NCBI GenBank assembly: GCA_021613535.1
Contig: CP075494.1
Span: forward strand, 4,898,001-4,962,000
DNA length: 64,000 nucleotides
Direction: 5' to 3'
DNA from: Adineta vaga
Taxonomy: Eukaryota; Animalia; Rotifera
The notes beneath the pieces are model-generated. The model was not told where the DNA came from, ran no database searches, and was given only the letters and a program-made list of their open reading frames with translations. The number at the start of each line of letters is the position of its first letter. Positions within the stretch are counted from its first letter, which is position 1. A program made the position numbers and the translations under genes. Below, in pieces: positions 22,585 through 24,776 of this stretch.

Positions 22585-24776
22585 TCAAGATCTTAATTGG
22601 AATGTGTCAGAGATATTTTGCGGTATTCCAGATGTGGGTTGAAACTGTAATTGCCAACTATACCAACTTGCATTGCTTGTTCTTTCATGTATGCTTTGAA
22701 ATTGTGCTATAACGTAGCGAGGAAATATTTTCTTACTAAAATTTCCATCTGGTCGAGACCTCCAAGTATAGATCAGTCTCGCTGGCTTTTCCTCGTCAGT
22801 ATACTCCATATCTAGTGATTGATCGAGGAAATTATGTTTTTGATCAATATGACTTGTTTTATTTGTGCCATACACGATTAGATTGATCGTCATGTTGACA
22901 AGAGTACGAGAACAATTCACATGAAGACGTAGAACTCGATAACTTTCAATCGGAAGAGTCGTGTTATCAAGAATAGCTTGACATATTACATGTGAATCAA
23001 TGCTTGTTGATGAATTTATTCCTACAAACATGACTAATACTGAATAATTGAGTTTCTCTTTCTTAATTTGAATGTACAATATACTTACTAGAGGGAAGAA
23101 GGGTGACCATTGGTATAACAATACTTGGAATCAAAACAATACAACCGATGAAAATAACAAGAAGATAAAATGAATGTTGTTTTAATATGATCATCATATT
23201 AGATAATGAAGTCATAGAATTGACCTGCAACGATAATATTCAGTAATAAAGTTTGCTTCAATTTTATAAACATATATCTTACTATGAAATTATTGAATAC
23301 ATTATTTTGAAGTTGAGTATTAACAACATTCATATCTTTATCTACCGAATTACATTGAATGTGATTATCGGATATTGTTCGAAGTTGTTCAACGATAATT
23401 TCATTATTTGCAGATTTAAGTGCCTCAGACATCAGTTGACAATACTTTTCCACATATGCACCATTCCGAATCGATTTCAACCAGATAGCCATTCCAGTAA
23501 TCATACAACTTTCACCTGTTTCAGTCAGAAGACGATATTGACTTTGATTTTTCTCAATTCGTTTCTCGTCTTTACCACGTACCATCTTAATCTTGATCGA
23601 ATAAGTTTCATCATTATGTACTTCTTCATACGATTCAGTACGAAAGACAATACCCATGGGTAACATGACTTCGTTTTCAAATCGCATTGAACTATATTCA
23701 CCAATAAAAGCAATTGGTTTCTCTCGAACTTCTGCTTGTGAAATATGCATTGAAATCAAAACAGATACTTCATCATTATTTCGGACACCTTCACCTGAAA
23801 ACATACCAGCAACATCTTCTTCCGTTGATGTTGACAAGAAATTTCTCGTCACAAATAATTCGCCTTTCATTTTTAAACGATTAACTTCATCTTTTTTCAT
23901 CATTTTTCCACGATAGACGATCAAATCTCGTTGTAGAAGTGTGCGTAATTGTTCTTGATGAAGTCTTTGTAATTGCATATACAAATCACGAAGAATGAAA
24001 CGAATTTGAAATAATGCTGTAAAATCCATTAAAGCACATGTTCGACTAATAATTTGACAAACGAAACTGCTCGATGTTGAATACCATTGAATAGCATCTG
24101 ATTCTTCATAAGTTCTTTCAAATTCATGAATTTTTCCCATATATGTCGGATTATCTTCGTATATTTTACGACAAAATTCCAAAAAATCTTCTTTTGCTTC
24201 ATTTGTTCTTGGTAGGTTAATGATTAATTCTGTTAAACATATTTGCATTAGTAACAGTTGACTACCTTCATCAAGTTGTTTGATTGGAGTTTGAAGTGAT
24301 GGTTTCGAAAGAAATTGTCGAATGAACGATTGATTTTCCAAGGATCGATGTGTAAACCAATTTTCAAAAGATTCTTGAGAAATACAACGATAGATTGCAA
24401 TAATTTGAGAAAATTTTATAAAATCATCTGCAATCTTTCTATTTTCAGCATAATGATCGTATAGAATAAGAATCACACGTTTTTGAACCGATGAATCAAT
24501 GTACTGGAGACATTCATTAAGATCATAGAATTCTTTGGATTCAAGTCGCAGTCGTTCCAATATTTCAGTATTTATTTCATTGTTTTGAAAACACATCGGT
24601 ATCCAAAACTTCAGTTCTTTTCGTAATTTTTTATCTTCAAGTCGAAATCGTTTTGTATTTGAGATTCGAACAAGACCACTCTTCGTATTTTCATTGGTTT
24701 TTATTGAGCGTTCAATTAATCGAACTATGACACGATGTGAAACATTTGCATCCGGATCCAGCTGCGATTCAACCAT
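22585..24776 (-). CDS. ART2: ADP-ribosyltransferase + TM helix + ectodomain (3 exons, about 688 aa)
   Basis: VYRG/FLSTS/ENEV motifs; introns 23225-23282 (phase 0) and 23022-23088 (phase 1) join a TM exon (FYLLVIFIGCIVLIPSIVIPMV) and the 22585 ORF in frame. Confidence 0.8.

Follow-up and report, generated by a model that had tools for sequence, protein, structure and literature searches.

The window analysed here (the whole stretch of DNA, 64,000 nucleotides) contains on its minus strand a gene in which a predicted ADP-ribosyltransferase (ART) domain is joined to a single transmembrane (TM) helix and to a C-terminal domain referred to below as the ectodomain. Its three exons, once joined, encode 688 aa in a frame that stays open until one terminal stop. 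The first-pass annotation had recognized this order of domains; a receiver-like domain at the N-terminus and two other copies of the ART exon in the window had escaped it. The components of the gene are as follows.

23283..24776, minus strand: exon 1, 498 codons, with the receiver-like domain, the helical ART lobe, the ART core and a low-confidence linker
24246..24740, minus strand: predicted receiver (CheY-like) fold, residues ~13-177, with the N-terminal domain of bdelloid ART-TPR proteins as its homolog
23562..24242, minus strand: predicted ART domain of the R-S-E clade, residues ~179-405
23912-23910, minus strand: R289, in the YRG motif
23834-23832, minus strand: S315, in the STS motif
23678-23676 and 23672-23670, minus strand: E367 and E369, in the motif E367-N-E369 (ExE)
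23225..23282, minus strand: intron 1, 58 nt, phase 0, GTAAGA..TTGCAG
23089..23224, minus strand: exon 2, with the single TM helix, covered by the X20, X14 and X13 contigs
~23170-23096, minus strand: predicted single TM helix, residues ~517-541
23022..23088, minus strand: intron 2, 67 nt, phase 1, GTAAGT..TTGTAG
Alternative acceptor of intron 2, minus strand: a 55-nt intron, in frame, giving 4 more residues
22585..23021, minus strand: exon 3, with the ectodomain, a predicted nine-stranded beta-sandwich with 8 sequons and 2 Cys

The splicing evidence consists of contigs from seven runs, some presumed to be RNA and others of unstated kind. Intron 1 is skipped by the X20 contig, whose short side of 134 nt corresponds to the whole TM exon, and the 67-nt form of intron 2 by the X14 contig, with a side of 98 nt. 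The X13 contig displays a 55-nt skip to the in-frame acceptor located 12 nt upstream, with a side of 94 nt. Junction 1 is bridged in one of the seven runs and junction 2 in two, which belong to another study than that of junction 1. Each bridging is a single contig at a depth of ~5, and the contigs overlap in the TM exon over 94-98 nt. A 16-nt loose end of the X14 contig matches the start of exon 2 and is too short to count for junction 1. No contig of the seven runs crosses both introns; the splice joints of the two studies tile the path from the ART through the TM helix to the ectodomain. The two-intron fusion proposed in the first pass is confirmed by the open frame, by the skipping of both introns in contigs and by orthologs in two genera: the ART, the TM helix and the ectodomain are fused in one gene. 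The opposite arrangement, in which the ART would end at the 23199 stop and the TM exons would stand separately, disagrees with the contig that runs from the ART exon into the whole TM exon. Intron 1 is free of in-frame stops (23199-23282, minus strand), and its retention would give a moderately hydrophobic C-terminal tail of 27 residues; coverage of this intron was found in none of the contigs listed.

The additional copies of the ART exon and of the receiver-like exon are located as follows.

25125..27757, minus strand: tandem paralog with the ART-TM-ectodomain order, exons 27757-26357, 25954-25898, 25848-25731 and 25528-25125
9719..13030, minus strand: third ART copy, with the ART exon at 13030-11627, a gap of 1089 nt and a second receiver-like exon at 10537-9719
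13691..14500, minus strand: copy of the receiver-like exon with its own ATG, 99.2% identical over 749 nt to the spliced copy

The tandem paralog lies upstream of the gene under study and is annotated as one protein, A. vaga UJR20224.1, to which its exon 1 is 99.8% identical, which identifies the window as DNA of a bdelloid rotifer; its intron junctions are bridged by none of the contigs listed. The two paralogs carrying the fusion have ART exons that are only 35% identical. In the third copy, an X14 contig of 2208 nt joins both exons into a 740-aa open frame, which has no TM helix. The duplicate of its receiver-like exon, 4 kb upstream, gives the impression that a neighbour was recently recruited to serve as the C-terminal module. 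All three ART exons of the window end in phase 0, and two of them are followed by TM and ectodomain exons. By its inferred origin, the family may have arisen by the joining of a receiver-ART exon with a phase-0 donor to different C-terminal modules, namely TPR arrays elsewhere and a second receiver-like exon or the TM and ectodomain exons here. As a side observation, the JGI ART ORFs (P0002-P0006 and P0008) all end in V-S-stop (6/6), as a phase-0 donor would read, and the ART/ectodomain pairs P0002/P0024 and P0007/P0018, whose members agree in the length of their longest contig (3202 and 1,286,368 nt), hint at more fusion genes split by prokaryotic gene callers.

Elsewhere in the window, a gene at 56664-62923 (plus strand) combines a SIR2-like domain with a NACHT/STAND NTPase (PF13289, E 6e-18). 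Its N-terminus matches PADLOC LmuA (E 3e-14), and an ORF of 818 aa in a different frame follows and overlaps it. Found in an animal genome, the gene is reminiscent of an NAD-consuming defence protein of bacterial type. An intron-containing gene at 19399-20530 (minus strand) is similar to an extracellular type 2 PHA depolymerase (NF050059, E 4e-38), is represented by spliced contigs in all four runs of one set and is likely of bacterial origin. Six units of ~400 aa with hydrophobic ends, 23-32% identical and with no Pfam match, form two facing arrays at 35692-39326 (plus strand) and 44173-48255 (minus strand). The intervals 4974-6269, 7506-9264, 30591-32278, 32482-33540, 33858-34916 and 39417-40811 hold an Indoleamine 2,3-dioxygenase, two amiloride-sensitive channel genes, a 2OG-Fe(II) dioxygenase and two FG-GAP repeat genes.

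The ART-TM-ectodomain order is annotated, in models without names, in A. ricciae (3 records), in the A. vaga paralog and in Rotaria magnacalcarata P0021. The best homolog of the gene is A. ricciae P0001, 69% identical over 645 aa and displaying the same domain order; its C-terminus matches the ectodomain profile with an E of 1e-20, P0001 itself not being part of that profile. The gene and its A. ricciae ortholog are grouped in the tree with a support of 100/99. A TM exon followed by a phase-1 donor is found in both window genes and in three metagenome loci; in these three, out of six loci, it precedes the ectodomain exon, all six loci being too short, or having too little DNA upstream, to show an ART exon. 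Judged from these annotations and alignments, the ART-TM-ectodomain arrangement is genuine, is present across the lineage and represents a new architecture within an enzyme family already known. A different origin would be a recent read-through event, by which a promiscuous ART exon captured a separate TM-ectodomain gene, the fusion having little function. A local analogue of such an event is the third ART exon: the exon to which it is spliced duplicates, at 99% identity, a gene copy that has its own ATG. The R. socialis models, several of them partial, display the TM helix and ectodomain behind a short N-terminus. Against this, annotated fusions occur in Rotaria as well as in two species of Adineta, and also in paralogs with just 35% identity between their ART exons; the fusion is therefore either old or has arisen more than once, and recent capture is regarded as very unlikely.

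By its motifs and its modelled fold, the predicted ART is a member of the R-S-E (ARTC/cholera-toxin-like) clade. R289, E367 and E369 are invariant in the 14 aligned rows (14/14) and S315 is present in at least 90% of them. R289, S315 and E369 align to the YRG/STS/E motifs of Vis, which is also a profile match (E 6.6e-8). The match to PF03496 reaches an E of 9e-4 and 19.1 bits, as compared to a curated cut-off of 23.4, and the third ART copy reaches 31.5 bits. A Foldseek search performed with the exon-1 AF2 model retrieved Vis (E 7e-8). In the VIA comparison of the same model, 20 ART chains top the list with Z scores of 9.4-14.1, including HopU1 (Z 14.1, rmsd 3.7, 192 aligned) and ART2.2 (Z 13.8). 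The R-STS-ExE domain recognized in the first pass is well founded, with the YRG, STS and ExE motifs in place and ART chains at the top of the fold searches. The ExE motif of arginine-specific ARTs is described in an excerpt of PMC8120803, and its presence suggests that the predicted enzyme would be specific for arginine. The aromatic position of the ARTT is occupied by Met in this gene, which was counted against the receptor reading discussed below. The exon-1 model has a mean pLDDT of 68, with values below 50 for residues 410-498, a stretch of ~90 residues linking the ART to the TM helix; such a low-confidence linker does not suggest rigid coupling.

The N-terminal domain, residues 13-177, displays a weak match to many response regulators (VIA Z 4.5-5.2). 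Its comparison to the N-domain of ART-TPR proteins with hhalign, on non-overlapping sets, gave 59% and an E of 9e-5, a reversed decoy giving 0.2%. P0009, a member of the bdelloid ART-TPR family, is matched by the gene at an E of 5e-24. The bdelloid ART-TPR proteins, for example P0010 and P0011 of A. steineri, share with it the receiver-like N-domain, the helical lobe and the YRG/STS/ExE core, with ~30% identity over the ART; they differ by a C-terminal TPR array, which is replaced here by the TM helix and the ectodomain. No TPR Pfam match was obtained in the gene. A TPR remnant after the ART was considered and rejected, as the comparison of the post-ART segment to the first TPR gave 0.2%, equal to the decoy. 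The ART-TM-ectodomain group forms its own clade versus the TPR forms (100/100, on long branches). On the basis of sequence comparison, the ART exon is part of a large bdelloid ART-TPR family whose C-terminal module varies. In the PMC11258130 supplement, the genes assigned GO:0003956 number 431 in A. vaga and 366 in A. ricciae. In these published infection data, the ART class is enriched among genes whose expression falls, and not rises, upon infection by a fungus: at 24 h this concerns 19 of the 431 A. vaga genes and 8 of the 366 A. ricciae genes (PMC11258130). The trend counts against the receptor reading discussed below. The file order indicates that the source of these counts is probably the table of HGT candidates.

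The TM, signal-peptide and topology calls rest on hydropathy. Kyte-Doolittle windows of 19 residues exceed 1.6 at starts 508-527 only, with a peak of 2.89, which corresponds to one helix. No signal-like stretch was detected in the first 40 residues (maximal 11-residue hydropathy 0.81), in agreement with the earlier claim that an N-terminal signal peptide is absent, nor in any of the eight N-termini checked (0/8, maximum 1.49). Asparagines lie in sequons in 8 of 10 cases after the helix versus 3 of 32 in exon 1 (498 residues; Fisher p 5e-5). Pooling four proteins, which are related and not independent, gave 25/47 after the TM helix versus 9/110 before it (p 2e-9). The enrichment noted in the first pass is upheld, and its count of about seven sequons is corrected to eight. 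Since a 500-aa N-terminus without signal peptide precedes the helix and the sequons are concentrated after it, an N-in/C-out (type II) topology of the predicted protein is considered highly probable. The ART would then likely reside in the cytosol and the ectodomain, likewise, outside the cell or in a lumen. The type II layout put forward earlier is supported by the sequon asymmetry, the orthologs and the fold searches, and would place the ART on the cytosolic side.

The charges around the helix are of less help: P0001 has one K/R before and none after the TM segment, which is uninformative, and the paralog has one before and four after, which points the opposite way. This excess of K/R after the helix in the paralog, together with a fold close to that of ART2.2 (Z 13.8), would agree with an inverted topology, in which the ART would act outside the cell as an ecto-enzyme similar to vertebrate ARTC1-5. 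Such an orientation is opposed by the absence of a signal peptide in all eight N-termini, by the depletion of sequons before the helix and their enrichment after it, and by the location of a receiver-like domain on the ART side, and is considered extremely unlikely.

The C-terminal half of the TM helix contains a proline in seven of the nine TM segments seen. This feature would fit a release-type sensor, a type II protein that would be cut within the membrane or close to it in response to a signal from the lumen or the outside, the receiver-ART portion then being set free to act as a soluble effector or cell-death switch. ATF6 is an analogous cleaved sensor of type II topology. The type II layout and the existence of soluble relatives, which indicate that the N-terminal part can stand alone, are also in favor of release. 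The proline is nevertheless absent in both Rotaria segments and may be a general feature of TM helices, and this mechanism is judged decidedly unlikely.

The ectodomain, 145 aa in length, was modelled by AF2 as a nine-stranded beta-sandwich with a pLDDT of 80.8. The highest VIA scores were obtained with PitA (Z 12.3), Als9 (Z 11.9) and cohesins (Z ~10), with many ties, corresponding to a likeness in fold to pilin/CnaA/Als adhesin domains and cohesins (Z 10-12.3) at an identity of ~15% or less. The beta-rich domain of about 145 aa announced in the first pass is in this way specified as a beta-sandwich of the adhesin/cohesin type. Sequence searches of the ectodomain family gave no match in Pfam, none among PDB sequences and none above cut-off in NCBIfam. 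In the Atlas, the ectodomain belongs to a mostly rotifer cluster of 74 members (0.90 and 0.97); the next cluster is from Actinomycetota (0.83 and 0.89) and serves as a lead only. Pattern and tblastn searches for an actinobacterial origin of the ectodomain gave no match, and a phage search performed with P0021 gave none either. Relatives of the ectodomain account for 12 of the 14 matches of the representative search, P0014 (mussel titin Ig repeats) and P0027 (a repeat protein) having been dropped as chance matches. Word-index searches for longer proteins with this ectodomain returned none and carry no weight, since P0001, P0021 and P0023 are proteins of that kind.

Compared to the A. ricciae ortholog, the ectodomain of the gene is 27% identical, as against 69% for the receiver-like domain and 78% for the ART core. 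The paralog and Rotaria show the reverse, with ectodomains 65% identical and ARTs 30% identical, which implies that the ART and the ectodomain evolve independently. Recognition domains of immune receptors often evolve independently of the rest of the molecule. The contrast in rates, as read from the alignments, would be consistent with relaxed constraint, with the swapping of exons or with a diversification of recognition. As no branch of the ectodomain tree is starred, swapping is not separable from fast evolution.

The gene is best described as a putative type II receptor-like enzyme in which ligand binding by the ectodomain would control the ART, a reading to which we assign a probability of about one half. 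Its individual steps are proposed tentatively: the sequon-rich ectodomain would bind a ligand outside, possibly by sensing microbes; the signal would be transferred across the membrane and would switch on arginine mono-ADP-ribosylation inside the cell, the ART perhaps being held off by the N-terminal receiver-like domain before stimulation. The family forms devoid of ectodomain (ART-TPR and ART-receiver) speak against this receptor model; they indicate that regulation may lie in the N-terminal domain, and the built-in receiver-like domain could be the real regulator of the ART. The fast change of the ectodomain, also compatible with relaxed constraint, likewise counts against it.

The same observations would suit a membrane-tethered enzyme, in which the TM helix and the beta-sandwich merely place the ART at the ER, the Golgi or the plasma membrane and regulation is exerted by the receiver-like domain or by cytosolic partners. 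The long low-confidence linker before the helix, an ectodomain just 27% identical between orthologs and relatives without any ectodomain are in line with such a role, for which the part of PMC10450202 dealing with PARP16 offers a precedent. A mere tether is nevertheless rather unlikely, as two genera have retained a folded ectodomain that is rich in sequons, contains two Cys and is 65% conserved in some lineages, which is more than an anchor requires.

The putative receptor-like enzyme can further be placed in a bdelloid receptor-ART class, in which the receiver-ART exon would be wired to interchangeable sensor modules and one of these, a TM helix with an adhesin-like ectodomain that diversifies and may stem from actinobacteria, would turn the recognition of microbes or surfaces into intracellular arginine ADP-ribosylation. 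This broader proposal is somewhat doubtful. If true, single-pass receptors would gain arginine ADP-ribosylation as a new output chemistry, in a signalling or immune system of animals that would run parallel to that of the receptor kinases. It would also provide a handle on the ~400 ART-labelled genes per Adineta genome and an insight into how asexual bdelloids might diversify recognition. To our knowledge, the known animal R-S-E ARTs act outside the cell. The lone membrane-anchored cytosolic animal ART found in the literature is PARP16, which has no folded ectodomain. Among the literature matches listed, titles and abstract openings mention neither bdelloid ARTs nor a receptor with a cytosolic R-S-E ART; reviews of ART evolution may mention related architectures.

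Compared to known systems, the predicted protein is similar in fold and catalytic triad to the bacterial R-S-E ARTs (Vis, HopU1, Tre1, SpvB, ExoS and VIP2). It differs from them in being encoded by a host gene with spliceosomal introns, in being membrane-bound without a secretion or delivery part, and by an identity of at most 24%. Vertebrate ARTC1-5 belong to the same R-S-E clade, with a Z of 13.8 to ART2.2, and are listed in a table of PMC7955679 as GPI-anchored or secreted ecto-enzymes. In contrast to these, the ART found here precedes the TM helix, is devoid of a signal peptide according to hydropathy, and is followed by an internal helix and a 145-aa domain. PARP16/ARTD15 is an animal ART followed by a TM helix with its C-terminus in the ER lumen, according to a section of PMC10450202, and is tied to stress signalling (PMC3634511). 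That enzyme belongs to the H-Y-Y PARP clade and has a short luminal helix, whereas an R-S-E ART and a folded domain of 145 aa are combined here. Catalytic receptors such as receptor kinases and guanylyl cyclases are mostly of type I and their coupling to ligands is proven; we know of none that uses an ART. In them, a single TM helix connects an enzyme on the inner side to a domain of binding type on the outer side, as in the protein studied here with its predicted sidedness. The gene belongs both to the R-S-E ART clade and to the ART expansion of bdelloids, and is neither an ecto-enzyme of the ARTC type nor an enzyme of the PARP16 type.
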